Source of the DNA: Candidatus Iainarchaeum sp.
GTDB lineage: Archaea > Iainarchaeota > Iainarchaeia > Iainarchaeales > VGJJ01
NCBI GenBank assembly: GCA_030688545.1
Contig: JAUYHT010000006.1
Coordinates: 120,001-152,000, forward strand
Direction of reading: 5' to 3'
DNA length: 32,000 nt
A program made the position numbers and the translations under genes. The notes under the pieces were generated by a model, which saw only the letters and a program-made list of their open reading frames with translations, made no database searches and was not told where the DNA came from. Positions 316 to 28,700 of this stretch are shown here, in pieces (the stretch's first letter is position 1; every line of letters starts with the position of its first letter).

Positions 316-1722
316 CTAAACCAATAAATGCCCATGCCGGATGCTCCCAGCGAGTCGGGCGACCTTGATGGCCAACGCATAGCCTATCCCGATGAATGTG
401 ATAGCCGCAAAATGGAAAATCCCTCTATTAGAGAGGAATGTCAATCCTCGGGGGGAAGATAATACTGGTTCTTTCTCGTCATCTTCCCATAACCCGGTGG
501 CGACCTTGAAATCCGCCACGGGATCGATGAAAACCTTGCCGCGAACATGGAGAAATGTATCGCAAAGAGGGGTGCGATGTTTTTTGCGGAGCAGCACATC
601 ATTCATGTGATAGCGTAACCGTTGAAGGGTATATCCCAGGATGTTCATTATTCCCTTGGGAGTGACTAGGGTCCTATCTTCCGTATACCGAGCGCCCGTG
701 ATCTTTTGGTAAGCGAATCCCAATTCAATTATGCGAAATGACAGATCGGTGTCCTCCCGGTAATAAAAGAAATCTTCATCATAGCCTCCCAGATGATTCA
801 AAAGATCTTTCTTAAATCCCGTGCTGGTGCCTCCATAATGCCCATACGCGCTGACCGCCCCCACATCGGGGGAATTAAATCCATTCACCATGGTTTGCAA
901 CCAATCCGCATGGGGAATACAGTCATGATCCATATTGATGATCACCTCTCCCGAGGCGGCTTGAATCCCGGTATTGCGTGCCTTACATACCCCGGATCGG
1001 GGGAGAGTAATTATTTTTACTTTTTTGTTTTTTCCGAAATGGTTTCGCAATTGTTGCGGGGTGTTTCCATCAAAGCTCCCGTCATCCACTACGATAATTT
1101 CAAATTTTCCATCGAACTTTTGCCCAAGCATTGCATCCACCGCCCGGATGAGGGGTTCGCCCCCATTGAGGGTGGCAACGACGATGCTCGCGCTCTTTGG
1201 AGGGGTTGATTTTTTTTTCTTTGAGGGTAGTGAACTAAGAAGAGGATTGTTTGTCTCTCGCGCGATCCGTTCGAGGATGCGGGGAATGTACCCGATGGAT
1301 TTTGAAGAGAATTTTATCCATCTTTTTTTTTGGATATGCGCCGCCAGTCCTTCCATGTCTTCAACAACATTCCCAAATTGTTCCACGTGAGATGCATGAG
1401 CGAGTTCAAGTTGATGGTCATCCGTGTGTTCACCCCATTTTTTCAACCGGGGAACGATAATCATCCGTTTCCTCGCGAGAATACCGGTGCCAATGTTCCC
1501 TTCTCCAGCGTGGGTGATGAATAATCGGGCGCGCCGCACGTGATTTTCGAATGCGTCAATGGGAAGGAATGGGATGCACTCCATTTTGGGATGAGTGAAA
1601 GGTGTATGTCCGGTCTGAAATACCACCTTCTCCCGGATAATACCTTGGTCCACCAGCCGTGCCACGGCGTCGGCGAGACGCATGAATGGTTGAGGATGCG
1701 TTCCTACCGAAATAAATATCAT
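316..1722 (-). CDS. Fusion glycosyltransferase: N-terminal Alg13-like (GT28 C-terminal type) domain + GT2 domain + C-terminal TM helix
   Basis: 468-aa ORF. The N-terminal ~135 aa carry IFISVGTHPQPF, ITHAGEGNIGTGI and DDHQLELA (Alg13/MurG-C-like motifs). After a K/S/P linker come GT2 motifs: IVVATLNGGEPL, IIVVDDGS, NMDHDCIP, YYREDTDL. The C-terminal hydrophobic helix is FHFAAITFIGIGYALAI. The start overlaps the upstream stop (ATGA at 1719-1722). Confidence 0.8.
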   Translation of the reverse strand: MIFISVGTHPQPFMRLADAVARLVDQGIIREKVVFQTGHTPFTHPKMECIPFLPIDAFENHVRRARLFITHAGEGNIGTGILARKRMIIVPRLKKWGEHTDDHQLELAHASHVEQFGNVVEDMEGLAAHIQKKRWIKFSSKSIGYIPRILERIARETNNPLLSSLPSKKKKSTPPKSASIVVATLNGGEPLIRAVDAMLGQKFDGKFEIIVVDDGSFDGNTPQQLRNHFGKNKKVKIITLPRSGVCKARNTGIQAASGEVIINMDHDCIPHADWLQTMVNGFNSPDVGAVSAYGHYGGTSTGFKKDLLNHLGGYDEDFFYYREDTDLSFRIIELGFAYQKITGARYTEDRTLVTPKGIMNILGYTLQRLRYHMNDVLLRKKHRTPLCDTFLHVRGKVFIDPVADFKVATGLWEDDEKEPVLSSPRGLTFLSNRGIFHFAAITFIGIGYALAIKVARLAGSIRHGHLLV

Positions 1723-3296: not shown

Positions 3297-4082
3297 ATGG
3301 AAATGTGGTTCATCCGTCGAAAGGAAATCTATTTAACTCGGACACTGATGGGAGTTCTTCGTGGTCAAATGGAAAAACAAGAATACGTAAAAATGCAGAG
3401 TCTGGAAAATGAGAATTGGTGGTACCAGTCGCGGAAACATCTCATTCATTTATTGGTGACTAAATTTGCCATGAAAATAGATTACATGATTGACGTGGGG
3501 TGCGGGAATGGAATGATTTTACATTCCTTTTCCAACATAGAAAAAAGGATTGGGATTGAAACCCATCCGTTGGCAGTTTCAAATGCTCGGGAAAAAGGTT
3601 TAACAATCATGGATAGCATCCGGGAAACACCCGATCAAGCAGACCTGGTCCTCCTCATGGATGTCATCGAGCATGTTCCAGATGACGTGACTTTTTTAAA
3701 AGAAGTATTGGCAAAATTAAGCTCGGATGGAAAAGCCATCATCACCGTACCCGCTTTCCAATGGCTGTGGAGCATTCATGATGAAAAAGTGCACCACTTT
3801 CGACGTTACTCCAAAAAAAGTCTAAACGCATGCATCCAGAAAGCCGGTGGGAAAGTGGATCATTTGTCTTATTGGAATGCCATTTTCTTTTTACCCGCGA
3901 TGGCCCGAAAATGGTTTCCGCATGGGAAAGATGAAAGCGATTTGAAACCAATCTGGGGCCCCTTGAATAATTTGATGTATCATTTGGTATGTTTCGAGAA
4001 TTCATTCAGTTCGAAGATTTCCATCCCTTTCGGGACGAGTGTCTATGCGGTAGTATCCAAGGGCGATTCATCAATGGAATAG
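3297..4082 (+). CDS. Class I SAM-dependent methyltransferase
   Basis: 261-aa ORF. Motif I is MIDVGCGNGMIL, the post-I acidic residue is in IGIE, and motif II/III is LVLLMDVIEHVPDD. The N-terminal ENENWWYQSRKHL is typical of methyltransferases found in glycan clusters. In-frame ATGs also occur at 3303, 3348 and 3369. The 3' end overlaps the aglB 3' end by 40 nt (convergent). Confidence 0.75.
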   Translation: MEMWFIRRKEIYLTRTLMGVLRGQMEKQEYVKMQSLENENWWYQSRKHLIHLLVTKFAMKIDYMIDVGCGNGMILHSFSNIEKRIGIETHPLAVSNAREKGLTIMDSIRETPDQADLVLLMDVIEHVPDDVTFLKEVLAKLSSDGKAIITVPAFQWLWSIHDEKVHHFRRYSKKSLNACIQKAGGKVDHLSYWNAIFFLPAMARKWFPHGKDESDLKPIWGPLNNLMYHLVCFENSFSSKISIPFGTSVYAVVSKGDSSME

Positions 4083-6241
4083 ATGCGCACGCCCCCCGCA
4101 TTGCGGTAGACTTCGGTGTAATGAGATTGCACCGAAGCTTCCCCGAACCAGAGGCGCACCAGCATGCTCTCATTGGCCGCGCGGGAGAAGAAATAGACCT
4201 TACGATTATCGAAATCCCGATACATGAACAAGGGGGGGTCCCTATTCGTCTGATTGGGATTACTAGTCCAAGTGGTGGGGGTGGCATTCATCTGGGCCTC
4301 TGAAAATTGGTTGCCCCCGCAATTGTAATTAACCTCTTTTGTCAAAACCGTTTCCTCCCGAGAACAATTCATCACGAAACCCAACACCCCTTGGATGCGG
4401 GGATCATTGATGTTGGTGACTCCATAAGCATAAAATCCGAGGTTGGGAAGTTTCCCTAGCAAATCGTCCCCGAAGATGAGGTGGGTACTCCCATAGTTGG
4501 CGACGATAGCATTGGCCTGGTCCACGTCCCGAGCAAGGATGAACCGCGCCACATCGGAGGTAGCTTTAGTATCTGCATTCCGGTTATCGATGATGACCTT
4601 CCGATTGGCCAGGAAGGATATCCAGTGCCCTTCGTCCCACCAATTGAAGAACTTCGTTTCTCCTGGCAGATTTTCGTCGGCCCAGAACAGGGCTGTTTTC
4701 CATCCGGGGGAAAGTTCGATGTTGGGCACGTTTTGGGTTACAAATAAGGTGCCGATGCCCACGCTCAAGACAATCATGAATCCCATGGCCGCCGTCACCA
4801 TCTTTTTCCGACGGATGGATTTATGGGAGACCCATCGCCAACCAAGCATCATCACGACGGCTCCCATCAAGGCAAGAGGCAACCCCCAATAGTAGGTGAA
4901 CTTGAGTTTTCCCCAGGCCATGAAAAAGGTGACGAGCAACCAAATCAGGGGGATAACCAGGAATTCGAAATGCCTGGATCTCCGCAGGAGCAGATAGCCT
5001 ATCGCGGGAATCCCGATGATGGCAAAGAGGACGAGGAAACTGTATTTGTTTCCGAAATAGTTTTTCCCTTCGCTCTCTTCCCCCACGGTTTGCCCCAACA
5101 CATCCCCTGTTTGCAGACTGAAATTGAACATTGTCACGAGTAATGGGGATAAAATGAGGGCCAGGATGATGAGGATGTACAACCATTTGACAACGGTTCC
5201 CCCCCATTCCATCCGCTTCTTGGTGAACCATAACCCGGCCGATAGGATGGCCATTCCCAGGATGACAAGAATGGTATCCGCATATCCCAGTGTGGGATTT
5301 TTGAGAATCACCCCCAATATCCCCCCAAACTGATCAAGCCAACCCAGATTAGTTTGGATGGTGGCGCTGATGGCCAACAGGATGAATGCGACGAGCCATA
5401 ATCCAGCGTAATGTTTCGCCTTCTCCAATTCATCCTCGCGCACCCAGAGAAGGAACTGCACGAATCCCACGCCAAGGAGGATGGGGATCAACATGTTGAA
5501 TGCCGACCACGTGAAAACCATTAATGAGAAGCTGATGCCAGCGAGGAGGGCATCGGTGATATTTGATCTTTTCCATTCCGGTTCACGCACCGCCCGCACG
5601 AGAAAGACGAATCCAATGACCATCCAGATGAAACCAAGAGAATCATCTTCGAAAAACCCTCCCATGGTGCGGTACACGAATGCGGGGATCACCGCGGCCA
5701 ATATTCCTGTCAATAACCCCGCGGCTTTTTCATGGGATCCTTTGAACAATTCTTTCCCCAGGAAATACATGGCTACAGCGATGAGTGCGCCGTAAAGGGC
5801 GGGCAATATCTTGATGAATAACACCCACACCTCGAAATCGTAGGGGGCATTAAATGTGAAAATTTTGTAGATGGCCGCGGAGATGTACCAGAACAACAGC
5901 GGAACATTTCCCAGCGTGGCCGCGGCGACATTTTGATAATAGCCCAAAGGGTCAATCATGGGAGCAGGAAGCCCTTGCAGAATGTAGGAAACCATGCGTG
6001 CGTGCCAGTACGAATCGAACTCGAAGAATAATTCGTATCGCATCAGCTGGGCGCGGACGATGAAACCAAGGATGAAAACGAGCAGGATGAATAGGAATTC
6101 TTTTCGCCAGAGTAAATGGGAAACCTTTTCTTTCCATTTGGTGAAATGGGATTCCTTTTTTGAGGATTCTTCCGGCACTGGAGAGGGAGGAGATTCTGGA
6201 TGAGGCGCGGAATCCATTTCCATGCCACTACAATAAGCCAT
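4043..6241 (-). CDS. aglB: Oligosaccharyltransferase AglB (STT3 family)
   Basis: 732-aa ORF, multi-TM N-terminal half plus soluble C-terminal half. Contains the WWDxG catalytic motif (FFNWWDEGHWISF) and acidic first-loop motifs (FFEFDSYWHARM, FFEDDSLGF). The likely true start is M7 (ATG at 6223), because a TATA-like box at 6246-6253 lies only ~5 nt upstream of the ATG at 6241. Confidence 0.85.
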   Translation of the reverse strand: MAYCSGMEMDSAPHPESPPSPVPEESSKKESHFTKWKEKVSHLLWRKEFLFILLVFILGFIVRAQLMRYELFFEFDSYWHARMVSYILQGLPAPMIDPLGYYQNVAAATLGNVPLLFWYISAAIYKIFTFNAPYDFEVWVLFIKILPALYGALIAVAMYFLGKELFKGSHEKAAGLLTGILAAVIPAFVYRTMGGFFEDDSLGFIWMVIGFVFLVRAVREPEWKRSNITDALLAGISFSLMVFTWSAFNMLIPILLGVGFVQFLLWVREDELEKAKHYAGLWLVAFILLAISATIQTNLGWLDQFGGILGVILKNPTLGYADTILVILGMAILSAGLWFTKKRMEWGGTVVKWLYILIILALILSPLLVTMFNFSLQTGDVLGQTVGEESEGKNYFGNKYSFLVLFAIIGIPAIGYLLLRRSRHFEFLVIPLIWLLVTFFMAWGKLKFTYYWGLPLALMGAVVMMLGWRWVSHKSIRRKKMVTAAMGFMIVLSVGIGTLFVTQNVPNIELSPGWKTALFWADENLPGETKFFNWWDEGHWISFLANRKVIIDNRNADTKATSDVARFILARDVDQANAIVANYGSTHLIFGDDLLGKLPNLGFYAYGVTNINDPRIQGVLGFVMNCSREETVLTKEVNYNCGGNQFSEAQMNATPTTWTSNPNQTNRDPPLFMYRDFDNRKVYFFSRAANESMLVRLWFGEASVQSHYTEVYRNAGGVRIYSIDESPLDTTA

Positions 6242-6245
6242 TTCG

Positions 6246-6253
6246 TTTTAAAG
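6246..6253 (-). promoter_or_regulatory. Putative TATA box of aglB (CTTTAAAA on the minus strand)
   Basis: Matches the recurring C-TTT(T/A)-AA box seen upstream of other genes here. It lies ~30 nt upstream of the in-frame ATG at 6223 (leaderless geometry) and 13 nt downstream of repeat element D. Confidence 0.4.
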
Positions 6254-6266
6254 GGCCGCTTCCTCG

Positions 6267-6327
6267 GCACGCTTTCGATGGCCGCTTTCGATCGGCCGCC
6301 CCGAACCCGGGGTATCTCCGATACCCC
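6267..6327 (-). repeat. Structured repeat element D (hairpin + CGATCGAAAGCG tail)
   Basis: Minus-strand reading: perfect 8-bp hairpin GGGGTATC-GGA-GATACCCC (6309-6327), then GGGTTCGGGGCGGCCGATCGAAAGCGGCCATCGAAAGCGTGC. The TCGGGGCG, CGATCGAAA and CGTGC blocks are shared with elements A and B at 10921-11060. Confidence 0.8.
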
Positions 6328-6354
6328 TGAAGAAATAACAACGGATAAATCGGG

Positions 6355-6405
6355 CGTGCGTCCCGATGGACGTGGGAGGTCGTTGATCTCCCAGCAGCCG
6401 AAACG
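6355..6405 (-). repeat. Structured repeat element C (51-nt near-copy of element B)
   Basis: Minus-strand reading: CGTTTCGGCTGCTGGGAGATCAACGACCTCCCACGTCCATCGGGACGCACG. The ungapped by-eye alignment to 10997-11047 (+) gives 40/51 identities. The 25-nt core CCTCCCACGTCCATCGGGRCGCACG is 24/25 identical. Mismatches cluster in the apical part of the hairpin. Confidence 0.85.
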
Positions 6406-6430
6406 ATTTCCATTCTCTTGCGTTATAAAT

Positions 6431-6502
6431 CGTTTTTTGATCAAACTTTTTTTAAAAAGAGAGTCGTTTTTTTGATCAAACTTTTTTTAAAAAAAGTTTG
6501 AT
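6431..6502. repeat. Tandem A/T-rich direct repeat (2 copies) ending in a perfect 28-nt palindrome; probable 5S rRNA terminator region
   Basis: CGTTTTTTGATCAAACTTTTTTTAAAAAG (6431-6459) and CGTTTTTTTGATCAAACTTTTTTTAAAAAAAG (6465-6496). ATCAAACTTTTTTT/AAAAAAAGTTTGAT (6475-6502) is a perfect 14+14 palindrome that abuts the 5S 3' end. The minus-strand transcript meets a T7 run within ~10 nt of that end. Confidence 0.75.
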
Positions 6503-6615
6503 TGACAGCGTTGGCACGGCTCCAGGAGAAATCCCAGTGCCATTAACCACCGGTACGCGTTTCACTTCCGGGTTCGAGATGAGTCCGGGTGGGGCCACGC
6601 CCGTATGGCCGTCAA
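6502..6615 (-). rRNA. rrf: 5S ribosomal RNA (ends approximate)
   Basis: Reverse complement: TTGACGGCCATACGGGCGTGGCCCCACCCGGACTCATCTCGAACCCGGAAGTGAAACGCGTACCGGTGGTTAATGGCACTGGGATTTCTCCTGGAGCCGTGCCAACGCTGTCAA. It contains the universal 5S core (CCCGGACTCATCTCGAACCCGGAAGTGAAAC). The termini pair as helix I (TTGACGGC/GCTGTCAA, one G-U). No 16S or 23S rRNA gene is adjacent in the window. Confidence 0.9.
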
Positions 6616-6640
6616 TCGAATGGAATGGGATAAGGAAGGG

Positions 6641-6648
6641 TTAAAAAG
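6641..6648 (-). promoter_or_regulatory. Putative TATA box of the 5S rRNA gene (CTTTTTAA on the minus strand)
   Basis: Centre ~29 nt upstream of the inferred 5S 5' end (6615), in the 52-nt spacer after the TBP stop codon. Confidence 0.5.
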
Positions 6649-6667
6649 GATTGGGCGAAGGCGCGTA

Positions 6668-7381
6668 TCACACGTCTTTTTCCTCTCCCTCTACCGTATC
6701 GTCTTCAGTTTCCTCTTCGTCTTCATCCTCGTCCTCGTCGGGAGCGAGGGGGGATACTTTCTGCGATTTCTTCTTGGTGCCCCCTTTTTCGAGGCCACGA
6801 ACCAAGTCGTCGGCGGTTTCCAGGCCGTGGATCATCTCTTTTTCGGTTTTGGCCCCCGCGCAGATCACTTTCCCGTTCTTGAATAACAGCATCGTCAGTT
6901 TGGGGTTATCCAATCGGAGGATGGCTCCCGGAAACTGCTCCGGCTCGTATTCCACATTGTCCAGTTGCATGGCCGTGGCGAACAGATCCAGATTCTGGTG
7001 CAGATTGCCCGTGGCCACAAGATTAACCACTTCATATTCAATGGTTTTGAGTATTTTCACGGAGGGCTGGATCTCATTGATCATTTTATTGGCTTTTTTG
7101 ATGGCCAAATCAATTTGGGCCTGGGCGCTTGCTCCCGAACAGATGATCTTCCCATTCTTGAATAGGAGCATCGAGACCTTGGGTTCCTTCAGCTTGAGGA
7201 TGGCCCCTGGAAACTGCTCCGGCTCGTATTCGATGTTGGGGATGGACATCGCCAGGTTATAGAGATCCAGATTGGCATTCAATCCCCCGGATGCCACCAG
7301 GTTCACAATAGAATAATCGATCTTCCTTCCCTTGTGGGTGAATGTATGTTGTTCAAAGACCTGTCCTGATCCTTCACTCAT
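6668..7381 (-). CDS. tbp: TATA-box binding protein (TBP) with acidic C-terminal tail
   Basis: Two direct TBP repeats are visible: IVNLVASGGLNANLDL...EYEPEQFPGAILKL...MLLFKNGKIICSGA and VVNLVATGNLHQNLDL...EYEPEQFPGAILRL...MLLFKNGKVICAGA. The tail is DEDEDEDEEETEDD. I place the start at ATG 7381 (MSEGSGQ...), which is preceded by GGAGGAATAAGT. The 26-codon upstream extension of the ORF (to 7459) would run through the TATA-like boxes. Confidence 0.9.
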   Translation of the reverse strand: MSEGSGQVFEQHTFTHKGRKIDYSIVNLVASGGLNANLDLYNLAMSIPNIEYEPEQFPGAILKLKEPKVSMLLFKNGKIICSGASAQAQIDLAIKKANKMINEIQPSVKILKTIEYEVVNLVATGNLHQNLDLFATAMQLDNVEYEPEQFPGAILRLDNPKLTMLLFKNGKVICAGAKTEKEMIHGLETADDLVRGLEKGGTKKKSQKVSPLAPDEDEDEDEEETEDDTVEGEEKDV

Positions 7382-7418
7382 ACTTATTCCTCCAACCCGT
7401 TTTCCCCGAGGCCTCTTC

Positions 7419-7440
7419 TTTAAAAAGGCTTTAAATATAC
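7419..7440 (-). promoter_or_regulatory. Putative tbp promoter (two adjacent TATA-like boxes)
   Basis: Minus-strand reading: GGTATATTTAAAGCCTTTTTAAAGAAG, 40-55 nt upstream of ATG 7381. This leaves a short leader containing GGAGG. Confidence 0.4.
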
Positions 7441-7853
7441 CACCTTGCCCCCAACCCATTTAAAAAGGAAATGCCGGGCCCGTTCACGTGAAAAAGGGGT
7501 TTTGGGGTGCTACTGCAAGAGCTGTTTTCTGTTCCATCGGATGTACATGGGCTAATTTCCCAATTTCATCATTTCCCCTTTTTCGTCGCCAGAAAATGGT
7601 AATTTTAATGGCAGAAATAGGATTTTACGGGAGTCAGAGACGATATTATTTACCCATCAACCACCCATTCCAGGCCCCATCTTAACGTTTCCTCGTCTTA
7701 GATCAATTCCCAAAAATCCCTTTACCAATTCCATCCATCCTATTTCATCCCCTCCTGAGGTTCTTTCCCCAAAAGGCCGCTTTATAAGATTTTCTTTGCC
7801 GGTATCATGGAAAGCCCGCGAGTATATTTTTATCTTTCAGAGGAGCAGCACCC

Positions 7854-8174
7854 ATGGCCAACAAGAAAGCACGAGGATATCGCGCCAACACGCGCGCCAA
7901 GATCCGCGGGGCCGCGACGCGCCCCACGGTGAACCAGCTCCTCCAAACATTCGATGTGGATGAGACGGTGCAGATTGTGATCAATGGAACCATTCATGCG
8001 GGCATGCCCTTCCGCCGCTTCCACGGCCTCACGGGCCAAGTAATAGGGCATCAAGGACGCGCCGTAAAGGTGAAGGCCTATTTGGGTAACCAGACGTGCA
8101 TCGTGATCCTGAATCCTATCCACTTGAAAAGATTGACCACTATTTCAAAGAAAGAAGCCAAGGTGAGCGCATGA
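7854..8174 (+). CDS. rpl21e: 50S ribosomal protein L21e
   Basis: 106-aa ORF, MANKKARGYRANTRAKIRG...FHGLTGQVIG..., the typical L21e N-terminus and SH3-like core. The stop overlaps the rpoF start (ATGA at 8171-8174). Confidence 0.9.
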   Translation: MANKKARGYRANTRAKIRGAATRPTVNQLLQTFDVDETVQIVINGTIHAGMPFRRFHGLTGQVIGHQGRAVKVKAYLGNQTCIVILNPIHLKRLTTISKKEAKVSA

Positions 8175-8506
8175 TAGGGAAAGAGACATTGGAAAAGCAC
8201 CCCATCTCCTTAGCCCACGTGAAGGATTTGCTAGAATCCCGCGAATCCACAAAAGAAGCTTCGTACGAACAGAACCAAACATTGGAGTATGTCACCAAAT
8301 TCGCCAAGCTGAAAAAAGAGGACGCGGAAGGGCTCTATAACAATCTCATGAACATCGAAGGAATGAATGAGGATGCCGCGGTGAAGATCGTGGACTTCCT
8401 TCCCGAGGACGCGGAGGCATTGAAACTCATCCTCCCCAAGTCCTCCAAACTCGAGGAATCCATTTTCCCCGACATTCTTGAGCGGGTAAAGAAATTCCGG
8501 GGCTGA
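8171..8506 (+). CDS. rpoF: DNA-directed RNA polymerase subunit Rpo4/F (Rpb4 homologue)
   Basis: ~111 aa from ATG 8171 (MIGKETLEKHPISLAHVKDLLE...). Size, helical acidic character and the conserved position between rpl21e and DUF655/ksgA support the call. The longer ORF from 8096 is an out-of-frame overlap with rpl21e. Confidence 0.75.
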   Translation: MIGKETLEKHPISLAHVKDLLESRESTKEASYEQNQTLEYVTKFAKLKKEDAEGLYNNLMNIEGMNEDAAVKIVDFLPEDAEALKLILPKSSKLEESIFPDILERVKKFRG

Positions 8507-8592
8507 TCCCATCAAAGTGGGGGTTGGCCGGGGTTTCCAGTTGGACACACCCATAAATACTCGGTCAGCCCTCCCTTCTACGAGTGATAACT

Positions 8593-9168
8593 ATGAATGA
8601 AGAACGGGCTATCATACTGGATTTTCTCCCCCATGGAAAGAGCTCGAGCTTCAAGAGCGAACCCCTGGCTTTAGTCGTGGGAACGGCTTTCTTCACCCTG
8701 CTTGAGGTAGTGCCCAAACCCAATACCGAGCTCAAGCCCTTGGAAGAGGCCTACATTGGAAAGGAGGCCCGGGACAAGATTGACCATATCAAGCAGCGCA
8801 CGACCTACGATAACCTCACCTCCAATGCCCGGGCGGAACTGGATAAGGCCATCGACAAGATCATTGGAATGAACGAAACTAAATTCCTCCAGTTCTTCAA
8901 CAGTGCGGGACCCATCTCCCTCAAGCGGCATCGCCTGGAATTGTTACCGGGAGTAGGCAAGCACCACATGGAATTGATCCTCCGCGAACGCACCACTAAG
9001 CTATTCGATTCATTCACCGAGCTGGAGTCGCGGATAAAATTCCCCACGTCCGTCACCAGTATCCTCCGGCGACGCATCCTCAATGAATTGGAAGGTAAAG
9101 AGAAGCACTTCCTCTTCGTCCGCCCCCCGCAAATCGAGGATGAACGCCACGTCCGCCGATTCAGGTGA
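8593..9168 (+). CDS. DUF655/COG1491-type putative nucleic-acid-binding protein (OB fold + helix-hairpin-helix)
   Basis: MNEERAIILDFLPHGK... N-terminus and LELLPGVGKHHMELIL (HhH-like) motif. Canonical archaeal neighbourhood rpl21e-rpoF-DUF655-ksgA. The ORF track starts at GTG 8584; ATG 8593 is preferred. Confidence 0.7.
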   Translation: MNEERAIILDFLPHGKSSSFKSEPLALVVGTAFFTLLEVVPKPNTELKPLEEAYIGKEARDKIDHIKQRTTYDNLTSNARAELDKAIDKIIGMNETKFLQFFNSAGPISLKRHRLELLPGVGKHHMELILRERTTKLFDSFTELESRIKFPTSVTSILRRRILNELEGKEKHFLFVRPPQIEDERHVRRFR

Positions 9169-10010
9169 TAGGCATGGGCGGCCTGGACGAGCTGCAGCGC
9201 GATATGGTCGCGCACTCCTTTTTTCCCGATAAGAAATTTTCGCAGCATTTTCTGGTGGATGAATCAATAATCCATCTCCTCGTGGATTCGGTGGGGGTGG
9301 GAAAAAAGAATAGTGTTCTCGAGATCGGCGGAGGCACGGGGTTTGTTACTCGGGCCATCCGCGAGACGGGAGCCCGCGTCATTGTGGTGGAAGTCCATGC
9401 TGCTTTGGCCGCGGTTCTTCAAGAAAAATTAGGCGACCAGAACGAGGTGCGAATCATTCAGAATGATATCTTGAAGGTTAATTTGAATCAATTGGACTTT
9501 GATACAGTCATCGCTTCTCCTCCGTATGCCATTTCAGATGACATTATGTATGCATTGTTCGCCCGCGGGTTCGATAATGCGTCATTGGTATGGCAATTGG
9601 AATTCGCCGAGAAGCTGTTGGCCCCCGAAGGAAGCGCGGAGTATAATGCGCTCTCCGTGCTGACCCAATATTTCTTCAATGGGGATATCGTGAAGAAGAT
9701 TTCCCCCAAGGCATTCTACCCCATGCCCCAGCAGTTCTCCTCCATCCTCGTATTGAAGCGGAAAAAAGTTCCCCCCATTCCTAATCATGCCCAATTTGTC
9801 GAGTTTATTCGCACCCTTTTCCGGTTTAAGAACAAAACCCTGGCGAATGCCTTGCGCCTCGCGGCGCGGCATATTCCCACCATCCCCTCTTCCGAACAGT
9901 GTGCCCTACTCTTGCGTCCATTCGACTGGGCGGGGAAAAAGGTGTTCCTCCTTTCTCCAGTGGAGTTCGTGGCATTGTACCATGCGCTTCTACATTTACC
10001 TCAAAAATAA
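9165..10010 (+). CDS. ksgA: 16S rRNA (adenine1518/1519-N6)-dimethyltransferase KsgA/RsmA/Dim1
   Basis: FSQHFLVDESII, SAM motif VLEIGGGTGFVTRAI, catalytic IASPPYAISDDIM. GTG 9165 overlaps the upstream stop (GTGA). An alternative ATG lies at 9174. Confidence 0.9.
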   Translation: MIGMGGLDELQRDMVAHSFFPDKKFSQHFLVDESIIHLLVDSVGVGKKNSVLEIGGGTGFVTRAIRETGARVIVVEVHAALAAVLQEKLGDQNEVRIIQNDILKVNLNQLDFDTVIASPPYAISDDIMYALFARGFDNASLVWQLEFAEKLLAPEGSAEYNALSVLTQYFFNGDIVKKISPKAFYPMPQQFSSILVLKRKKVPPIPNHAQFVEFIRTLFRFKNKTLANALRLAARHIPTIPSSEQCALLLRPFDWAGKKVFLLSPVEFVALYHALLHLPQK

Positions 10011-10030
10011 AATTAATGTCCTCTTTTTAT

Positions 10031-10837
10031 TCAAGGTGTTGAGGCCGCGATGCAGTACGCCCGCGATGTTTCACTGGAAACATTTCCGCACAATGAAGCG
10101 TTTCGGGTGATCCCGGCCACGGCGATGAGACAGGCATCCTTGGCTCCCATGAATACTATGCGATCGCACTCAGACGCTGACCTCCGGGCAATAGCCACTT
10201 CCGTGAAGCAGGTGTCCCGTGCCTCGGTGCGCGGGATAGCATAGCAAATGTCCCCGTCCCGCGCAGAAATAGCAGCCTGGATGTAGCAGGATTCTTTCTT
10301 GTTTCCCAATAACCCATCGATGAACGTGCCCGTGGAAAAGATCTGGGCGCATTCGCTCGAGGACACAGGCGCAATGGGTCTGTCAACCGCCTGGCGGAAT
10401 AAGGGGCCCGTGATGAGCGTGGGGTCACCCGGGTCAAGGACGCGGAATCCAGAAAGGGCGAGCCGAGCGGCATCCGGAGGATACGTGAATAGGCCGAAGA
10501 CGAATGGTTCGGGGCACCCGCACACGGTGCAGGTCACATCCACATTTTGGTAGGCCAATTGGATGTCCAGCACGCGAATGTCCCGCTCTTCATAGAATGC
10601 CCGCACATAGGACAATTCCTCTTCCACGGGGAATTGAGCATAGGGGCGATTGTTCTCAATCCCCCATTGTTCCCTCCAGGGGAGCACGGTACATTTTCCT
10701 GGCTGCAACAACACCCATTCAGGGGCATCCATCGAGGCATCTGGGGCGATGGGCAACTCCCACTGGGTTACCCAGAAGAGAATTCCCAATGATATGAGAA
10801 TGAGTCCCACCACCATGGCCACGGCCCGCTTGTCCAT
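10031..10837 (-). CDS. Hypothetical N-terminally anchored extracytoplasmic protein with a C-terminal Cys-containing ~26-aa repeat region
   Basis: I start it at ATG 10837 (MDKRAVAMVVGLILISLGILFWV = signal anchor). This ATG is preceded ~25 nt upstream by a TATA-like CCTTTCTTAAAG. The ORF track extends it to 11062 through the repeat elements A/B, which I regard as non-coding. The C-terminal repeats follow C-x2-I-x5-6-(R/K)D-x-C-x3-(V/A)A. Confidence 0.6.
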   Translation of the reverse strand: MDKRAVAMVVGLILISLGILFWVTQWELPIAPDASMDAPEWVLLQPGKCTVLPWREQWGIENNRPYAQFPVEEELSYVRAFYEERDIRVLDIQLAYQNVDVTCTVCGCPEPFVFGLFTYPPDAARLALSGFRVLDPGDPTLITGPLFRQAVDRPIAPVSSSECAQIFSTGTFIDGLLGNKKESCYIQAAISARDGDICYAIPRTEARDTCFTEVAIARRSASECDRIVFMGAKDACLIAVAGITRNASLCGNVSSETSRAYCIAASTP

Positions 10838-10856
10838 GAGCCCTTTTGGCGCTCCC

Positions 10857-10866
10857 TCTTTAAGAA
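10857..10866. promoter_or_regulatory. TATA-like box (CTTTAAGAAA / TTTCTTAAAG), candidate promoter for the minus-strand membrane protein and possibly for a plus-strand transcript covering elements A/B
   Basis: Quasi-symmetric A/T box ~25 nt from ATG 10837 (minus) and ~55 nt upstream of element A (plus). Confidence 0.35.
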
Positions 10867-10920
10867 AGGCCGCTACCCCCCCTTGCATAAAAGGACGGAA
10901 TTTGACTCCTGTCGGCCGCC

Positions 10921-10970
10921 GGGGGATTGAAGAATCCCCCTCGTCCCTCGGAGCGCACGATCGAAAGCGA
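10921..10970 (+). repeat. Structured repeat element A (hairpin + CGATCGAAAGCG tail)
   Basis: Perfect 8-bp hairpin GGGGGATT-GAAG-AATCCCCC (10921-10940), followed by TCGTCCCTCGGAGCGCACGATCGAAAGCGA. Confidence 0.8.
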
Positions 10971-10996
10971 TTATCATCGTCGTGTGGATTCAGAGT

Positions 10997-11060
10997 CGTT
11001 CCGGCCGCTGGGAGGGTGTAACCCTCCCACGTCCATCGGGGCGCACGATCGAAATCGTGC
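10997..11060 (+). repeat. Structured repeat element B (hairpin + inverted-repeat tail)
   Basis: CGTTCCGGCCGCTG, then the perfect 8-bp hairpin GGGAGGGT-GTA-ACCCTCCC (11010-11028), then ACGTCCATCGGGGCGCACGATCGAAATCGTGC. The last 18 nt form GCACGAT-CGAA-ATCGTGC (7-bp inverted repeat). It ends 15 nt before the TATA-like box at 11076. Confidence 0.85.
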
Positions 11061-11075
11061 ATGTGCAGGGGTAGG

Positions 11076-11083
11076 ATTTAATA
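11076..11083 (+). promoter_or_regulatory. Putative ftsZ TATA box (ATTTAATA)
   Basis: The only A/T box between element B and the ftsZ start codons. It lies 38 nt upstream of ATG 11114 and 80 nt upstream of the SD-preceded ATG 11156. Confidence 0.4.
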
Positions 11084-11155
11084 CCTTGCACCCGGTAGTA
11101 TGGTGCATAACCCATGCTCCGGGGGCATTGGGGAACAATGAGGGGTGATGTGGGA

Positions 11156-12331
11156 ATGGAGAGCATTTTTCAACGGGGGGTTCAGCGCGCCGCGTCCAAC
11201 CAATCCGGTTTCATGCCCAGTGGGGCCGTTAATCCCGATTCGATTACCCAAACGCAACCCCCTCAACCTATTCGGAATGATTTCACCGCCAAGGATGAGG
11301 AGTCCATCCGCCAATTCCTCAATGAATCCCAGGCCAAGATCGCCGTGGTCGGTGTCGGGGGCGGGGGAACCAATACGGTGCAGCGCCTCAATGAAGTGGG
11401 TTTGGATGGCGGGGAAACCTACGCCGTGAACACGGATGCGCAGGCTTTGTTGCATATCCATGCGACCCGGAAAATTTTGATTGGAAAGCAGCTTACGCGT
11501 GGATTGGGAGCGGGATCCGATCCGTCAGTAGGAGAGGCGGCCGCGCGCGAGAGTGAGGGAGAATTGAAGGAGTTGTTGCAAGGCTCCGATTTGGTTTTCA
11601 TTACGTGTGGTATGGGTGGAGGTACGGGAACAGGAGCGGCCCCCGTCATTGCGAGCGTGGCGAAAGGGTTGAACGCCCTCACTGTGGGAGTGGTTACCCT
11701 CCCTTTCACTGTGGAGGGGCGCACGCGCATCGAGAATGCGTTAGAAGGATTGAACCGCTTGCGCAAGGAAGCGGATACCGTTATCATCATTCCCAACGAC
11801 AAGATTTTGGAGATCGCTCCTGATTTGCCAGTGAACGCGGCCTTCAAGGTGGCCGATGAGGTGTTGGTGAATGCGGTGAAGGGAATCACCGAGATGGTCA
11901 CCAAACCAGGATTGATCAACTTGGATTTTGCGGATTTGCGCACCATCCTTTCGCGAGGGGGAGCGGCGCTAATTGGGTTGGGGGAGAGCCGGGCTGACAA
12001 AGCGAGCGACGCGCGCGCGTTGGAAGCGGTGGAGAATGCTCTTACTTCACCCTTGCTGGATGTGGATATCTCCCACGCCACGAAAGCATTGATTAATGTC
12101 ATTGGGGGCACGGATATGACCCTTCGCGAGGCCGAGATGATCGTGGAAGTGGTGGGCTCGCGCATTGATGGTAACGCCCATATCATTTGGGGGGCGATGA
12201 TCGATGAGAGTATTCCCCGGTCGCAGATCCAAGCCATGGTTGTTGTGGCGGGGGGAAAAATCCCTTTCCTCGACAGCGTGCCCACTCAAGGGGCTGAACG
12301 GGTGGATTTGGATATCGAGTTTACGGAGTGA
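11156..12331 (+). CDS. ftsZ: Cell division protein FtsZ
   Basis: Tubulin/FtsZ signature GMGGGTGTGAAPVIASVAK, plus IAVVGVGGGGTNTV and NTDAQAL. ATG 11156 is preceded by AGGGGTGAT. In-frame upstream ATGs at 11114 and 11138 are alternatives. Confidence 0.9.
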   Translation: MESIFQRGVQRAASNQSGFMPSGAVNPDSITQTQPPQPIRNDFTAKDEESIRQFLNESQAKIAVVGVGGGGTNTVQRLNEVGLDGGETYAVNTDAQALLHIHATRKILIGKQLTRGLGAGSDPSVGEAAARESEGELKELLQGSDLVFITCGMGGGTGTGAAPVIASVAKGLNALTVGVVTLPFTVEGRTRIENALEGLNRLRKEADTVIIIPNDKILEIAPDLPVNAAFKVADEVLVNAVKGITEMVTKPGLINLDFADLRTILSRGGAALIGLGESRADKASDARALEAVENALTSPLLDVDISHATKALINVIGGTDMTLREAEMIVEVVGSRIDGNAHIIWGAMIDESIPRSQIQAMVVVAGGKIPFLDSVPTQGAERVDLDIEFTE

Positions 12332-14580: not shown

Positions 14581-14788
14581 AGTTTCATTCAATCCTCTCC
14601 TTTCACAAAAAACTAAAAGCCAAGAGTCATGAACGATAAAGCAATTATCCATTTTTGGCAAAACTATTTTTCAAATGGTATTCATTTTTTGATCGAACTT
14701 CATCGTAAACACTATTTTTCCGTCAACGCTTTTTCCAGTGGAAAAAGGGTTGTTACGATGCCCGCAAAACATGGTTTTGCTTGGTTTC

Positions 14789-17676: not shown

Positions 17677-17710
17677 GGGGGAGGGAAACCCTCCCCCATA
17701 CTCTTTTTTC
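17677..17710. terminator. GC-rich hairpin + T-tract between convergent rpl12 and the protease gene
   Basis: GGGGGAGGG-AAA-CCCTCCCCC (perfect 9-bp stem, 17677-17697), followed by ATACTCTTTTTTC. The stem sequence resembles the hairpin of repeat element B. Confidence 0.6.
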
Positions 17711-20049: not shown

Positions 20050-20190
20050 CTCCTGATTCCCCAGGGGATTGACGCCCTCTATGCAGAGACATGGACCCGC
20101 CTAGATCATCGATGAATCAACTTCCCAGGACGACTAAAGAGGAAGGTATATCCCCTTTTTTTGACGAAACTTTTTCCTAAAAAGTCCGGG

Positions 20191-22116: not shown

Positions 22117-22240
22117 TTCCCCTCCTCTGTAAGGCGGGATATCCTCCATTTACCCAGACTATGATTTTTGAAAATAAGTTGTTATTGATAAAACCTTTGG
22201 AAAAAAGTGATCGAACTTTTTAATAAAAAAAAAAGTCGAA

Positions 22241-23940: not shown

Positions 23941-24786
23941 TCAGATGGGGGCTGGGGGGTTCCAGACCCGATCGAATTGGTGGCGGAGGGTTTCCGCGAG
24001 GGGGGGATGGTGGTTCCAGATACTGAAATGGTACTCAGGTTGGTCTTTTTTTATGTCGGAGAGCATCATAACCACTTTCTTCCCATCGATGATGTAGGCG
24101 TGCAGTCCATGGTGGGCGTGTTGGGCGTGTATTTTATGGTCAGCCCCTAAATGGGGGAGGGCCTCCAGAAAACTATTGGGGTGTTCCCCCGCGAGCTTAA
24201 CCTCCACATCCCTTTGAGCGGCGCGGCGGAGCGAATCATGGAGAATGGGATGATGCACATCCAGGGCGGTTAGCCCGATGACTTCCTGGTGGGCGGTATC
24301 TATCTCCTGCGCCAAAATCTTGTAGAAGTCTCCCCTCGATTTCACTTTGAATATATTTTCCTCATTTTGAGCGGATGACGTGGTTTGATTAGCCAGAGTG
24401 GCTTCCCATTCCTTTGCGCGGTTTTCCAGGACTTCCAATTGACCGCGCTTCGCCTGCATGAGTTTGGTGAACACCTCGCGCGTGTCGAGAGCGCGGTATT
24501 TTTTGGGACGTGAAAAAATGGGAATAGCCAATCCCCGTTCGACGAGTTTATCTAATACATCATACACCCGTGTTTTGGGCACCTGAGCGGCCCGGCTCAC
24601 TTCGGGAGATTCGGCTTCCTTCAGATGAAAAAGCGCCGCGAGGGTCTTGGCCTCGTACTCGGTGAGGCCCATTTCGGAAAGGAAGGAAGCCAATGGTTGA
24701 TTCATTTTGTTACCCGAAGCAGTTACTGCATGAGAAGGGGATTCCCCATATTTAAACCAACCTTCCTCTTGGGTCGCGACCCTCAT
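23941..24786 (-). CDS. TrmB-family transcriptional regulator
   Basis: Winged-HTH LTEYEAKTLAALFHLKEAESPEVSRAAQVPKTRVYDVLDKLVERGLA, followed by a coiled-coil and a C-terminal domain. ATG 24786 overlaps the upstream stop (ATGA at 24783-24786). An alternative start is ATG 24705 (MNQPLASF...). Confidence 0.8.
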   Translation of the reverse strand: MRVATQEEGWFKYGESPSHAVTASGNKMNQPLASFLSEMGLTEYEAKTLAALFHLKEAESPEVSRAAQVPKTRVYDVLDKLVERGLAIPIFSRPKKYRALDTREVFTKLMQAKRGQLEVLENRAKEWEATLANQTTSSAQNEENIFKVKSRGDFYKILAQEIDTAHQEVIGLTALDVHHPILHDSLRRAAQRDVEVKLAGEHPNSFLEALPHLGADHKIHAQHAHHGLHAYIIDGKKVVMMLSDIKKDQPEYHFSIWNHHPPLAETLRHQFDRVWNPPAPI

Positions 24787-25724: not shown

Positions 25725-28700
25725 TCATTGCGTGGGCGCGCCCACGCAGGTTTGTCCTGCCACAAGATTATTGGTCAATGCGCTGATGCTCGTCTGGGCC
25801 GTCTGCTTGTACAATTTCTCCGGATTCCAGAAGAATTGGGCTTTTACCCCGGAATCCGCCAGGCAAATGGTCTGATCCGCCACCAGGTCAAAGACATCCT
25901 GCAACGAATCAATGGTGGTGCTGGCATTGTTGTAGGGGAGAGTGGTAATTCCATCCAGGGATACCGCGTTGGAGGGGGTCGCATGATTGCTCGTGATAAA
26001 TTGTACATTCCCCTGCGTCGCCTGCATCGCATAATCCGCTTGGGTGGGGGTATAGAAAATGGTGCGCAGGAACTCATTCCCTCCCACGCGGGCGTTTTCC
26101 CAATCCAATCCATACGTGAAGGGGAATGCCGTCACCCGATCCTCCGGGGTGGCGACGCGGTCGGGGGTGAAATTAAACCGCTCCCATACCGGGACACCCG
26201 TATAATCATAGCAGTTTCCCGCCCCCTCCCAGAATGTCAAATTATTTCCCGTCTGCACGGGCGCACCCTCCTTGGACAACTGGTAAAATATGGAGAATGG
26301 TTCCGTGCTCGCGGCATGATTAATCTTCATCATCAGCGGGGTCGCCAGGGATGGAGTGAAAACCAATCGTTGCGCGGTGTTCCCTCCCGGAGCCACTACT
26401 TCCAACACACTTCCCCGCGTGGAGGGCAAACTATTCATCTGCCGGATATCATCATTCCGCTCCACCGTCAATTTGGCCAGGGCCGTGCTCCCCTCTCCCG
26501 AATGGGTCTGCTCCAGCCCATCATTCACCCGAATGGGGGGCGTTCCCTGGTTGATGAATTCCAACCCGTACCCCACCCGGTCATATCGTGTATTCTGCAA
26601 CCCCACCCCCCCGTCGAAGGGGAGTTTGTAGAACGGACTATTGGGGCTGGGGTTCTCCAGATGATAGAAGTCCACCCCCACACTTGCATTTGGGCTCCCA
26701 TTGGCATCGAATAACGTCCAATCTTCCCCGAAGAACACCGACACATCCACGGTATATTTTCCGGGGGCAGGGAGGGTGGTGTCACTGAAATATTTGTTGC
26801 TGAACCCTAATCTATCGTCGCTCCCGTAATAGGCCGCCAGACCAAATGTCCCCTGGCTCCCGGTGAACCACGAGGGGGCGTCCGCAAAGGAGGTGTTCAC
26901 ATAATACTCACGGAAATCCGATTCGAAATCCGCCGAGTACCCATCTCGGATGAGGTAGGCCTCAAAATGGAACAATTCATTGAGCGTCTGAACATCCGGG
27001 ATGCGGGATGTGAATTGAACGTTCGCGTTCACATGTTGGCCGAACACCGGATCATCCTTGTCTATCCACCGGTTGATGGCCGGCTTCCCCCCCAGAATAG
27101 CCGTCGTCTTGGGGAGCGTCTCGCAGGTTCCCAGGGCCGCATCCGAATAGCTCGCCACATCAATCCCCACAACATTGTTCGAAAAAGCGATGTTGGCGGT
27201 GGTGGTGCTCGTGAGATCGAAGCGCGTGCTGTAAAAATGAGGCAACACCCCCGATAGGGAGCACTCGATTCGCTGTGCGGTCCCGGCGGGAATAGTTGCA
27301 TTGTTCCCGCAGGTCAGAGTCGGGGGATTAATCCCCCCCGAACCAATACCTTCTGCATCCTGGGGGGTCATCGTTCCATTAAACCCAACATCCTGCGTTA
27401 TCGTCGTATTGTTCTGCACCACCCCGTGCAGCGTAATGGAATCCACGGAATCAAAGCGATACCCCGTCTCCGTGAATCCAATGAATCCTTCCGGCACCGT
27501 GTCCTGGTTGGCAAAACTCCCATCTCCCGGTTGAGCGTGGGGGTTGTCGGGGCAGGCGAATGAAAAGGTGTTCACCGATAGGAATTCCTGGAAGGCATTC
27601 ACCCGTTTCATCAAATCGATATTGAATTGGGTGGCATCGCAGAAAATGGATTGGTCATTCCCCGCGTCGCACGCATAGAGGGGAATGCCCGTGGTGTCAT
27701 TCCAGTTCCACGTGAGGGCGATTCGGGGCAGAGTGCCTTTCCCCGTCTGCCCCAATGTGTTGCCGCTCACACAGGCCACGCTGTCGAATTGCAAGGGAGG
27801 GAGAGACTGGTTGATATCTTGCGTCCTGAATTTGAGATGAAATTTCTCCTCCCTCACCCTATCTTCCGCGGGGGAACAATTCCCCTGACCCGGGGAAGGA
27901 CCGATTCGAAGGTTCCCAAAATTCCCATTGCGGCATTCCACGGATGCCCGGCCCGCGTGGGCAAAATCCCCGTGGATGTGTTCCAATGCGCGCAGGGAAA
28001 CCGTACCGAACAATGGATTAGGATTAGTATACCCGGATACATTGGTGAAAACCACTCCCGCTTGCTGGAAGGTATCCTCTCCCTTCGAGATCAAACCCGC
28101 GGCATCCAGTGCCCATTCTCCTGTGATATGATCTCGTACGTTAGGCGAAAGACGTATATCAATGGCATCCGGGGGAAGCGCTTGCTGGTCCGATCCCCCT
28201 GTGAGGTTGATGATGTAATCCATGAGCGTTTCCGTTTGATCCTTGTCGCATTCGTCCTCGAACAATGAATACAGCACGGCAATGGCTACAATGACGGCGG
28301 CGCAGGGAGCGCATATGCTGGCAGCGTACTTGGCCGCTATGATATAGGTAATAGCCCCCGCTCCGGCCGCCGCCCCCACATTCTGATAGGCTTTGGCGGA
28401 TGCTTTCCCCCCAAACAAAGGATGAATGTCCACCCAGAACTTGGGATCCCAGGGCACCCCATCATACACATCCTTCCAATCACAGATACTGGCCTTCACA
28501 CGTACCTGTTCGAGGAACAGCCTATTCAGTACCGTGGTGGCGTCTTTGGCATCCTGCTGGTAGAGGCTGAATCCTCCCTTGTCTAATTCGAACGCATAAC
28601 TCAAGTCGCTATCCACTTGTACTTCCAGCGCGGCCACCCGTTTGTAGCTCGTTCCCGGCACCCGCGCATCCACTGTCAAATCATACGTCCCGGGCAGCGT

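Follow-up and report, generated by a model that had tools for sequence, protein, structure and literature searches.

A short hairpin-rich repeat lies immediately upstream of the cell-division gene ftsZ in a 32,000-nucleotide (nt) stretch of the Candidatus Iainarchaeum sp. contig JAUYHT010000006.1 (positions 120,001–152,000; the whole stretch is referred to as the window). Two units of this repeat, A1 and B1, occupy the spacer ahead of ftsZ, and the 5S rRNA gene and aglB/STT3 enclose a second pair, B2 and A2, on the minus strand. We favor, with somewhat better than even confidence, a reading in which the repeat is a small non-coding module that duplicates itself and depends on the folding of its stems, resident in the 5S rRNA trailer and newly copied into the ftsZ spacer, where it is probably transcribed toward ftsZ and probably plays no ftsZ-specific role. 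This reading builds on the shared anatomy of the family, the covariation of both stems, an insertion polymorphism at ftsZ, and target repeats that flank the units in related genomes. In general terms, the repeat is best read as a new, small hairpin-repeat family of a known general kind, the extragenic hairpin repeats. The family appears confined to a single clade within Diapherotrites, which belong to the DPANN archaea.

Anatomy of the Repeat Unit

The unit is built by four regions: a variable, perfect hairpin (hp1); a conserved linker (CGTCCMTCGGRGCGCACG in the window); a second hairpin (hp2) with a CGAAA loop; and a short tail. In the family as a whole, hp1 measures 8–14 bp, has a copy-specific sequence, and is closed by a loop of 3–5 nt that is mostly purine-rich and 3–4 nt long; the linker follows the pattern ..TTCGG.GC and is single-stranded; and hp2 is a G+C stem of 5–7 bp with a CGAAA-containing loop. 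The window holds four units:

10897–10985, plus strand: unit A1 (sequence, repeat comparison, nhmmer, and hairpin shuffle test). The 5′ flank is 10897–10920, GGAATTTGACTCCTGTCGGCCGCC; hp1 is 10921–10940, GGGGGATT-GAAG-AATCCCCC, a perfect 8-bp hairpin; the linker is 10941–10955, and hp1 is trailed by TCGTCCCTCGGAGCGCACGATCGAAAGCGA (10941–10970); the hp2 region is degenerate, with an alternative stem CACGATCGA (10956–10964)/TCGTCGTG (10977–10984); the tail is GCGATTATCA.
10986–11062, plus strand: unit B1 (sequence, fold z = −3.2, nhmmer, and shuffle test). The 5′ flank is 10986–11009, with CGTTCCGGCCGCT at 10997–11009; hp1 is 11010–11028, GGGAGGGT-GTA-ACCCTCCC, or 9 bp if the T11009–A11029 pair is included (11009–11029); the linker is 11030–11042, with ACGTCCATCGGGGC between hp1 and hp2; hp2 is 11043–11060, GCACGAT-CGAA-ATCGTGC, 7 bp with a CGAA loop.
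6332–6404, minus strand: unit B2 (repeat comparison, fold, and nhmmer). The 5′ flank is CGTTTCGGCTGCT; hp1 is 6392–6374, eight positions with one A.C mismatch; the linker is identical to that of B1 over CCTCCCACGTCCATCGGG; hp2 is shifted, TCGGG-ACGCACG-CCCGA.
6262–6337, minus strand: unit A2 (repeat comparison and nhmmer). hp1 is 6327–6309, GGGGTATC-GGA-GATACCCC; the linker is GGGTTCGGGGC; hp2 is 6297–6280, GGCCG-ATCGAAAG-CGGCC, followed by a second ATCGAAAGCG.

The tails of A1 and B1 agree at 28 of 32 nt at a spacing of 88 nt, and their 5′ flanks (27 nt 5′ of each hairpin) are 70% identical at a spacing of 89 nt. Because both tails and flanks align, A1–B1 is a tandem duplication with a period of 88–89 nt. 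A preliminary description of this DNA had called its elements A and B (10921–11083) tandem; the sequence it gave was correct apart from one G counted twice, a trivial slip. The flanks of the two units are 70–88% identical, yet hp1 differs by three fully compensated pair changes. As read from the sequence, this is a duplication that has kept the unit flanks and rewritten the central hairpin. The four copies counted at the outset also stand: a profile made from the four units (nhmmer) recovered each of them in the 32-kb window at E = 1e-12 to 1e-19 and, beyond A1, B1, A2, and B2, matched nothing there below E = 0.2. The 14-mer GCGCACGATCGAAA has no significance alone, and the evidence rests on the whole unit. 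Each window unit is oriented like the gene downstream of it, and all 12 units, those of relatives included, share the orientation of 5S, aglB, or ftsZ. The linkers and tails of A1, B1, and B2 are closer to each other than to units at the orthologous site elsewhere, and the greater likeness of tails within a genome than between genomes suggests intragenomic spread or homogenization.

Covariation of Both Stems

The hp1 and hp2 stems were analyzed on separate alignments, the variable hp1 not being alignable by MAFFT. Eight of ten hp1 hairpins are perfect, far beyond chance: none of the perfect ones was equaled by more than 7 of 2000 shuffles. In the alignment of ten hairpins, 96% of hp1 cells are paired and all eight pairs carry double changes (21 cells), whereas slid registers fall to 25–60%; the two wobble cells in this alignment are due to A1, aligned there with an offset of one column. 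Similarly, in an eight-unit alignment, 94% of hp2 cells are paired and four of five pairs are double-changed. Neither level of pairing was reached by any of 500 shuffles, counts that are not to be taken as probabilities, given that the hairpins were partly picked as hairpins beside the linker and the sequences are related. RNAalifold predicted both stems independently and unprompted. A long outer stem, CGUUCCG/CGGGGCG, was also considered and rejected as outside the family consensus: it forms in B1 and B2 only and not in A1, A2, or the relatives. A single difference separates contig L121 of a metagenome-assembled genome (MAG) from the window over 4.1 kb, a T-to-C change at 11025 that creates an A.C mismatch in the 3′ arm of B1 hp1; variation within the population could account for it, as could a consensus made chimeric by another copy.

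The pattern of change in hp2 bears on what reads the element. Its arms covary across eight units (GCACGAT/ATCGTGC, GGCCG/CGGCC, CGCCG/CGGCG, and CGCCC/GGGCG), its center, CGAAA, is conserved, and the linker TTCGG.GC stays constant while the arms change. Varying arms around a constant center are the reverse of the half-site pattern of a dimeric protein and argue that the element is read as a folded single strand. The geometry of a dimeric DNA-binding site, which had been seen in the B1 palindrome, is not upheld by this comparison. On the best reading of the sequences, the element would act, and be recognized and maintained, as a folded single strand of RNA or single-stranded DNA (ssDNA) rather than as a double-stranded operator.

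A Home in the 5S rRNA Trailer

Around B2 and A2, the window has the following features:

4043–6223, minus strand: aglB/STT3 oligosaccharyltransferase gene, 726 amino acids (aa) as annotated.
6423–6429, minus strand: TATA box TTTATAA, near the archaeal consensus, located past the 5S terminator and 30 nt ahead of B2 hp1.
6500–6616, minus strand: 5S rRNA gene (Rfam RF00001, 64 bits).

The TTTATAA box looks promoter-like and resembles the 5S and aglB promoters of relatives (CTTTATAAC). The aglB TATA box CCTTTAAAAC lies about 10–15 nt downstream of A2. As a side observation on this gene (6223–6241, 6245–6254), CCTTTAAAAC is ~23 nt upstream of the M7 ATG and too near the first ATG of the open reading frame (ORF), and aglB is probably leaderless, with its start at M7.

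Homologous units are found just downstream of 5S rRNA in four of seven relatives, designated here by contig: L123, L134 (two units), L135 (two units), and L133. In three of these four, the 5S 3′ end recurs with its oligo-T terminator as direct repeats on either side of the units. L123 (GCA_043803765.1) has, after 5S, GGGGTACCAT-aca-ATGGTACCC, gtttttcggtgc, and GGCCG-ggcgaaaa-CGGCC, clearly homologous to A2 (GGGGTATC-gga-GATACCCC gggttcggggc GGCCG-atcgaaag-CGGCC). Around this ~66-nt unit (1029–1130, minus strand) stands a perfect 33-nt direct repeat, CGCTGTCAACACTCATTCTTTTACTTTTTTTCC (39 of 42 nt in the extended alignment), made up of the last bases of 5S and the T-rich terminator; its sequence suggests a duplicated target, or else an att-like duplication of the kind made at RNA genes. 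In L134 (GCA_964811685.1), two units follow 5S, each ending in a copy of the 5S end and T7, and one of them has the tail GCGATTATCAT in common with A1. L135 carries a complete unit that has a 5S-end copy, with another hairpin where the contig stops, and L133 a trailer hairpin followed by the contig end. In the other three relatives (L126, L131, and L137), the trailers hold only short hairpins between two T-runs, without a full unit. Oligo-T follows each unit in L123, L134, and L135. The 5S-end tail is statistically significant in L123, L134a, and L135a, and not in the copies of the window; when the units were examined as possible 5S derivatives, the tails of the former three copied the 5S 3′ end, the window units did not, and no unit matched the 5S model. 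The usual home of the element would, then, be the 5S trailer, between the 5S oligo-T terminator and the aglB promoter.

Two side observations belong here. First, the hp1 stems fall into three types, GGGATT-like (alpha; A1, L134a, L133, L135b), GGGTAYC-like (beta; A2, L123, L135a), and GGGAG-like (gamma; B1, B2, L134b), and neighboring units always differ in type: alpha–gamma at the ftsZ locus of the window and in L134, gamma–beta at the 5S locus of the window, and beta–alpha in L135. These orders hint at an ancestral array of three units. Second, an A/T-rich, partly palindromic motif, TTTTTTGATCAAACTTTTTTTAAAAA, has six copies in the window, always intergenic at gene ends (6433–6502, 14651–14713, 20157–20185, and 22181–22209), and is probably a bidirectional oligo-T terminator or a promoter block; beside 5S it forms a 35-nt tandem duplication, while the MAG version of the locus has one copy.

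The residence beside 5S invites a different explanation, which we regard as unlikely though better placed than the other rivals: the units may be true small RNA genes, or may belong to the 5S precursor trailer, in either case with a 5S-linked cellular function, and the ftsZ pair would be an extra gene copy. The synthesis of each RNA would begin at an A/T-rich promoter of its own or come from read-through, and would stop at the oligo-T of the unit. In the relatives, the 3′ tail repeats the 3′ strand of 5S helix I and might therefore base-pair with the 5′ strand of 5S. The units keep their place and direction behind 5S in five of eight genomes, although other intergenic DNA is unalignable, both stems covary strongly, the units of L123, L134, and L135 are each followed by oligo-T, and TTTATAA precedes B2 by 30 nt. 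Along the same lines, the 5S-end copy of L135 follows the lineage-specific 5S, its two differences being transitions that keep pairing to the 5S 5′ strand via G.U. However, the 5S trailer is without the element in three of eight genomes (L126, L131, and L137), so the element is dispensable. Unit number and order also vary, the distance from the A/T box to hp1 ranges from 8 to 33 nt, the window copies have lost tail and terminator, ~75 hp1 pairs include no genuine G.U, and no Rfam family corresponds.

A bolder reading, unlikely in our view, is that the element is either an undescribed archaeal small RNA tied to 5S rRNA or a new hairpin-guided mini mobile element targeting the 5S terminator. In the first version, judged by sequence, the 3′ tail of the relatives might, as 5S matures, bind the 5S 5′ strand by base pairing or compete for it; in the second, 20–40 nt of target would be duplicated, and the genome would have been caught colonizing a second site, the ftsZ promoter region.

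In another reading, slippage or unequal exchange between T-runs duplicated the 5S 3′ region and terminator locally and left the units as decaying by-products, with one piece copied ectopically upstream of ftsZ; they would have neither function nor dedicated mobility, and their perfect palindromes would be kept by template-switch ‘correction’. Direct repeats of the 5S 3′ end do surround the units, the 35-nt terminator duplication beside 5S in the window is absent from the MAG version, all stems are purely Watson–Crick, and the L126, L131, and L137 trailers consist of a T-run, a short hairpin, and a T-run, without a full unit. We nonetheless hold this explanation to be improbable: the linker and hp2 loop have persisted in genomes whose remaining spacers are too divergent to align, hp1 has 21 compensated cells, and beyond the tail the units have no likeness to 5S (no 5S match at E <= 10).

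Insertion Upstream of ftsZ

The features around A1 and B1 are as follows:

10031–10838, minus strand: membrane-protein gene, 268 aa, starting at M76 of a 343-codon ORF; the MAG annotation also gives 268 aa.
10857–10866, minus strand: A/T box TTTCTTAAAG, ~24 nt upstream of the ATG at 10838.
10886–10893, plus strand: TATA-like sequence CATAAAAG, 27 nt upstream of A1 hp1.
11076–11083, plus strand: TATA box of the ftsZ core promoter, ATTTAATA, with similar boxes in relatives; B1 ends 15 nt before it.
11156–12331, plus strand: ftsZ, 391 aa, starting MESIF (P0001, 100% identity, 391 aa) and preceded by a Shine–Dalgarno-like GAGGGGTGAT.

The FtsZ homologues assign the window to Diapherotrites/Iainarchaeota (DPANN), and the same sequence is present in MAG GCA_034375545.1. 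We compared the syntenic region (ksgA, membrane protein, ftsZ, secE, and spt5) in ten related genomes whose FtsZ is 78–86% identical. The spacer between the membrane-protein gene and ftsZ is 317 nt long with 58% GC in the window, as against 76–197 nt and 38–45% GC in the ten relatives; in the closest of them (FtsZ 86% identical), it measures 123 nt, and its two TATA boxes are ~30 nt apart. A TT(T/A)AATA box occurs 71–88 nt before the ftsZ ATG in five of the ten relatives (L127, L124, L133, L134, and L137), and TTTTAATGA at a similar position in three more. This recurrence of a TATA-type box indicates a conserved ftsZ core promoter, and the original placement of the ftsZ box was correct; with the window counted in, TTTAATA-type boxes lie 71–88 nt before the ATG in six of 11 genomes. 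The element itself was found in none of the ten spacers, either by eye or by profile search. Since the relatives keep the TATA box without the element, the ftsZ pair is a lineage-specific insertion and not a conserved operator. The A1–B1 block of ~170 nt makes up the excess in spacer length and G+C and therefore does not belong to the conserved regulatory sequences of this promoter. The ftsZ pair would thus represent a secondary duplicative insertion of this lineage, placed between two divergent core promoters (membrane protein on the left, ftsZ on the right) and directly upstream of the ftsZ TATA box.

These comparisons leave very little room for an ftsZ operator or activator, in which the B1 repeat GCACGAT-CGAA-ATCGTGC would bind a dimeric transcription factor upstream of the B recognition element (BRE) and TATA box. 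Besides the 15-nt distance from B1 to the ftsZ TATA box, such a role could draw on A2, which likewise ends 10–15 nt before the aglB TATA box, and on a TrmB-family regulator gene in the window (23941–24786). Yet, all ten relatives have a conserved promoter without the element, so that a conserved position in orthologous promoters is lacking, and conserved half-sites with fixed spacing are lacking as well: the palindrome arms covary around a constant center, and hp1 stems that differ in length (8–14 bp) and sequence are incompatible with one factor reading fixed half-sites. Of the two roles first suggested for the element, that of an upstream operator or activator is therefore not supported, the element being absent from the ftsZ spacer of all ten relatives, whereas a structured leader or non-coding RNA fits the covariation. 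On present evidence, the element says nothing about ftsZ regulation in general.

Position M76 of the minus-strand ORF aligns with the start methionine of six orthologues, and the 75-residue extension preceding it is found in the window only, not in the six. Together with the 268-aa call, this alignment defines 10839–11155 as the 317-nt spacer between divergent genes. The A/T box at 10857–10866 is a probable promoter of a leaderless membrane-protein gene, a TTAATA box occupying the same place in relatives. The preliminary description had dismissed the 75-codon extension and treated 10921–11083 as non-coding, and the orthologues and the 268-aa MAG product agree with it on both counts. The contrary view, that 10839–11062 encodes the 75 N-terminal codons of the uninterrupted minus-strand ORF 10031–11062, is scarcely credible, given that the extension has no counterpart in the six orthologues, all of which start at the residue aligned to M76, that annotators give 268 aa, that the same repeat also occupies the non-coding 5S trailer, and that a six-frame peptide concatenate of all units, aimed at mis-called ORFs, matched none of 5.8 billion proteins. 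The element thus explains a false 75-codon N-terminal extension on the neighboring gene.

Probable Transcription and Proposed Mode of Spread

TATA-like boxes are found 27–33 nt upstream of hp1 in A1, B1, and B2. Of these, CATAAAAG is a possible candidate promoter for sense transcription of A1–B1, the homologous position of B2 being occupied by TTTATAA. Half of the hp1 loops are GNA triloops on the sense strand, which, with the oligo-T after the units of relatives, favor that strand on sequence grounds. The transcription of the element and its strand, its mode of spread, and its lack of an ftsZ-specific role are inferred. Transcription is most likely in the sense of 5S, aglB, and ftsZ, and spread would occur by self-duplication along with the A/T-rich terminator or promoter spacer. 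At ftsZ, the element is probably a passenger; at most, it may form a structured upstream transcript or leader while pushing the divergent promoters apart.

In five cases, a short-read contig breaks off within an element. L122 begins at 11031, two bases past B1 hp1; L140, from another sequencing run and 100% identical to the window, spans exactly 6289–10943, so that its ends lie in the A2 hp2 loop and three bases past A1 hp1; and L133 and L135 each end in a trailer hairpin, the other ends of the broken contigs being unremarkable. The element explains why short-read assemblies break at these sites, and the breaks fit longer identical stretches elsewhere in the genome or population.

Several observations weigh against a duplicative module transcribed toward ftsZ. 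The contig breaks could equally reflect a sequencing or coverage artefact at strong inverted repeats. Only two independent loci were seen, and ~130 kb of related genomes contained no copy outside the 5S trailer, so in relatives the element looks resident rather than dispersed. The 32-kb window has no transposase, integrase, or RAYT (REP-associated tyrosine transposase) gene; the ftsZ site has neither terminal inverted repeats nor a clear target duplication; and the window copies are without the 5S-end tail and oligo-T seen in relatives. On the question of strand, there is no genuine G.U among ~75 hp1 pairs, and the two mismatches of the window copies (in B2 hp1 and in the L121 variant of B1) are A.C in the sense strand, a combination that does not favor a sense-strand RNA.

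Relation to Known Systems

In its working, the repeat is most like repetitive extragenic palindromic (REP) sequences and bacterial interspersed mosaic elements (BIMEs) or BOX-type extragenic hairpin repeats, an assignment made by analogy. REP-like palindromes have been predicted in archaea as well (PMC12306157). As with REP/BIME, these are short, G+C-rich extragenic hairpins that come in clusters and mosaic subtypes, the known ones being often co-transcribed with their neighbors, and the palindromes of all four window units and of eight units in relatives are confined to extragenic DNA. Unlike REP/BIME, the unit also comprises a linker that is conserved and a further stem-loop, hp1 is not uniform among the copies within a genome, and no RAYT gene lies in the window. 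Nor is there a GTAG-like tetranucleotide by the stem, the 5′ neighbors of hp1 being CGCC, GCT, TTCA, GATA, ACGT, and CTTT, and neighboring copies are not inverted, as in REP doublets forming hairpins (REPINs) or BIMEs: adjacent units are all direct repeats on one strand.

Pneumococcal BOX and the Correia elements, or Neisseria miniature insertion sequences (NEMIS), are bacterial, high-copy repeats, and Correia elements have terminal inverted repeats and target duplications. The likeness lies in modules of tens of nt in variable order and number, with stable stem-loops, that insert beside promoters and can alter or supply transcripts; here, by contrast, the home is the 5S trailer, and two loci are documented.

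Archaeal miniature inverted-repeat transposable elements (MITEs) and palindrome-associated transposable elements (PATEs), the latter derived from IS200/IS605, are likewise small and non-autonomous, and PATEs have subterminal hairpins, are strand-specific, and are without terminal inverted repeats. No inverted or direct repeat brackets the 10897–11062 block, which has internal hairpins only; without terminal inverted repeats or a short target duplication, the element is not a MITE. Compared with PATEs, the repeat shows hairpins and a strand bias, but its neighboring units align over their whole length instead of forming a left-end/right-end pair; neither a conserved target tetranucleotide nor tnpA/tnpB was identified in the 32-kb window. 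The flanking repeats of the relatives, at 20–40 nt, are also far longer than transposase target duplications. A REP/MITE-like repeat had been named in advance as the outcome that would overturn the operator reading; it is indeed closer to the truth than an operator, although the hallmarks of MITEs are missing, as are the conserved tetranucleotide and the inverted pairing of REP.

Two further comparisons involve RNA genes and terminators. As in att integration at tRNA genes, the insert is bracketed by a duplicated RNA-gene 3′ end (33 nt, perfect, in L123); it differs in being 60–110 nt long and without an integrase, in targeting 5S rRNA rather than a tRNA gene, and in forming multi-unit arrays. 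Like intrinsic terminators, the units of relatives are G+C hairpins followed by T-runs, and the same genome has one such structure after the P1 gene (17677–17697); the window copies, however, are without T-run, stand upstream of genes, and have a linker and a second stem-loop. The 17677–17697 structure is a G+C hairpin with a perfect 9-bp stem, GGGGGAGGG-aaa-CCCTCCCCC, and is trailed by CTCTTTTTTC; it lies 7 nt past the ribosomal P1 stop and between convergent genes, and looks like a terminator; its stem resembles that of B1 hp1 (GGGAGGG/CCCTCCC), without linker or hp2.

DPANN archaea have very small genomes with short spacers. A compensated structured repeat in the 5S trailer of several genera, newly placed beside the core promoter of a cell-division gene, is unusual in such a setting. 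If transcribed, it would represent a new archaeal RNA family; if mobile, a small element of a new sort, aimed at the terminator of an RNA gene and duplicating an unusually long piece of its target.

Database Searches and Minor Observations

In Rfam 15, only the 5S rRNA passed the gathering threshold, and nothing meaningful fell over the elements at E <= 10. A genome-collection scan with the degenerate, G+C-rich CGTCCMTCGGRRCGCACG gave at least 120 chance matches in high-GC bacteria, with no Diapherotrites among the matches listed, and a metagenome scan with CCCWCGTCCMTCGGRRCGCACG gave a single match, rejected as chance, in a bacterial contig of 63–67% GC without the hairpin. Viral scans gave zero matches or chance matches inside coding regions, and blastn of the elements against phage and plasmid collections gave none. 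Other candidate identities were rejected in turn: tRNA or split-tRNA fragments (none by ARAGORN); C/D or H/ACA guide RNAs (no boxes on sequence reading); a K-loop in hp2 (the loop ends AG, not GA); the target hairpin of a diversity-generating retroelement (not at a gene 3′ end); an integron attC site (no R/L box pairing); domain V of a group II intron (on sequence reading); and a CRISPR array (two units per locus, hp1 the variable part, and homologous unit flanks).

Two observations lie apart from the repeat. In L133 (3656–4205), a ribbon-helix-helix (RHH) antitoxin and PemK toxin pair stands between DUF655 and ksgA in a neighborhood that is otherwise strictly syntenic. A giant minus-strand ORF (25725–31991; at least 2088 aa) starts ~10 nt from the right edge of the window; it has CarboxypepD_reg and Ig-like domains close to the N-terminus and probably encodes a surface protein.

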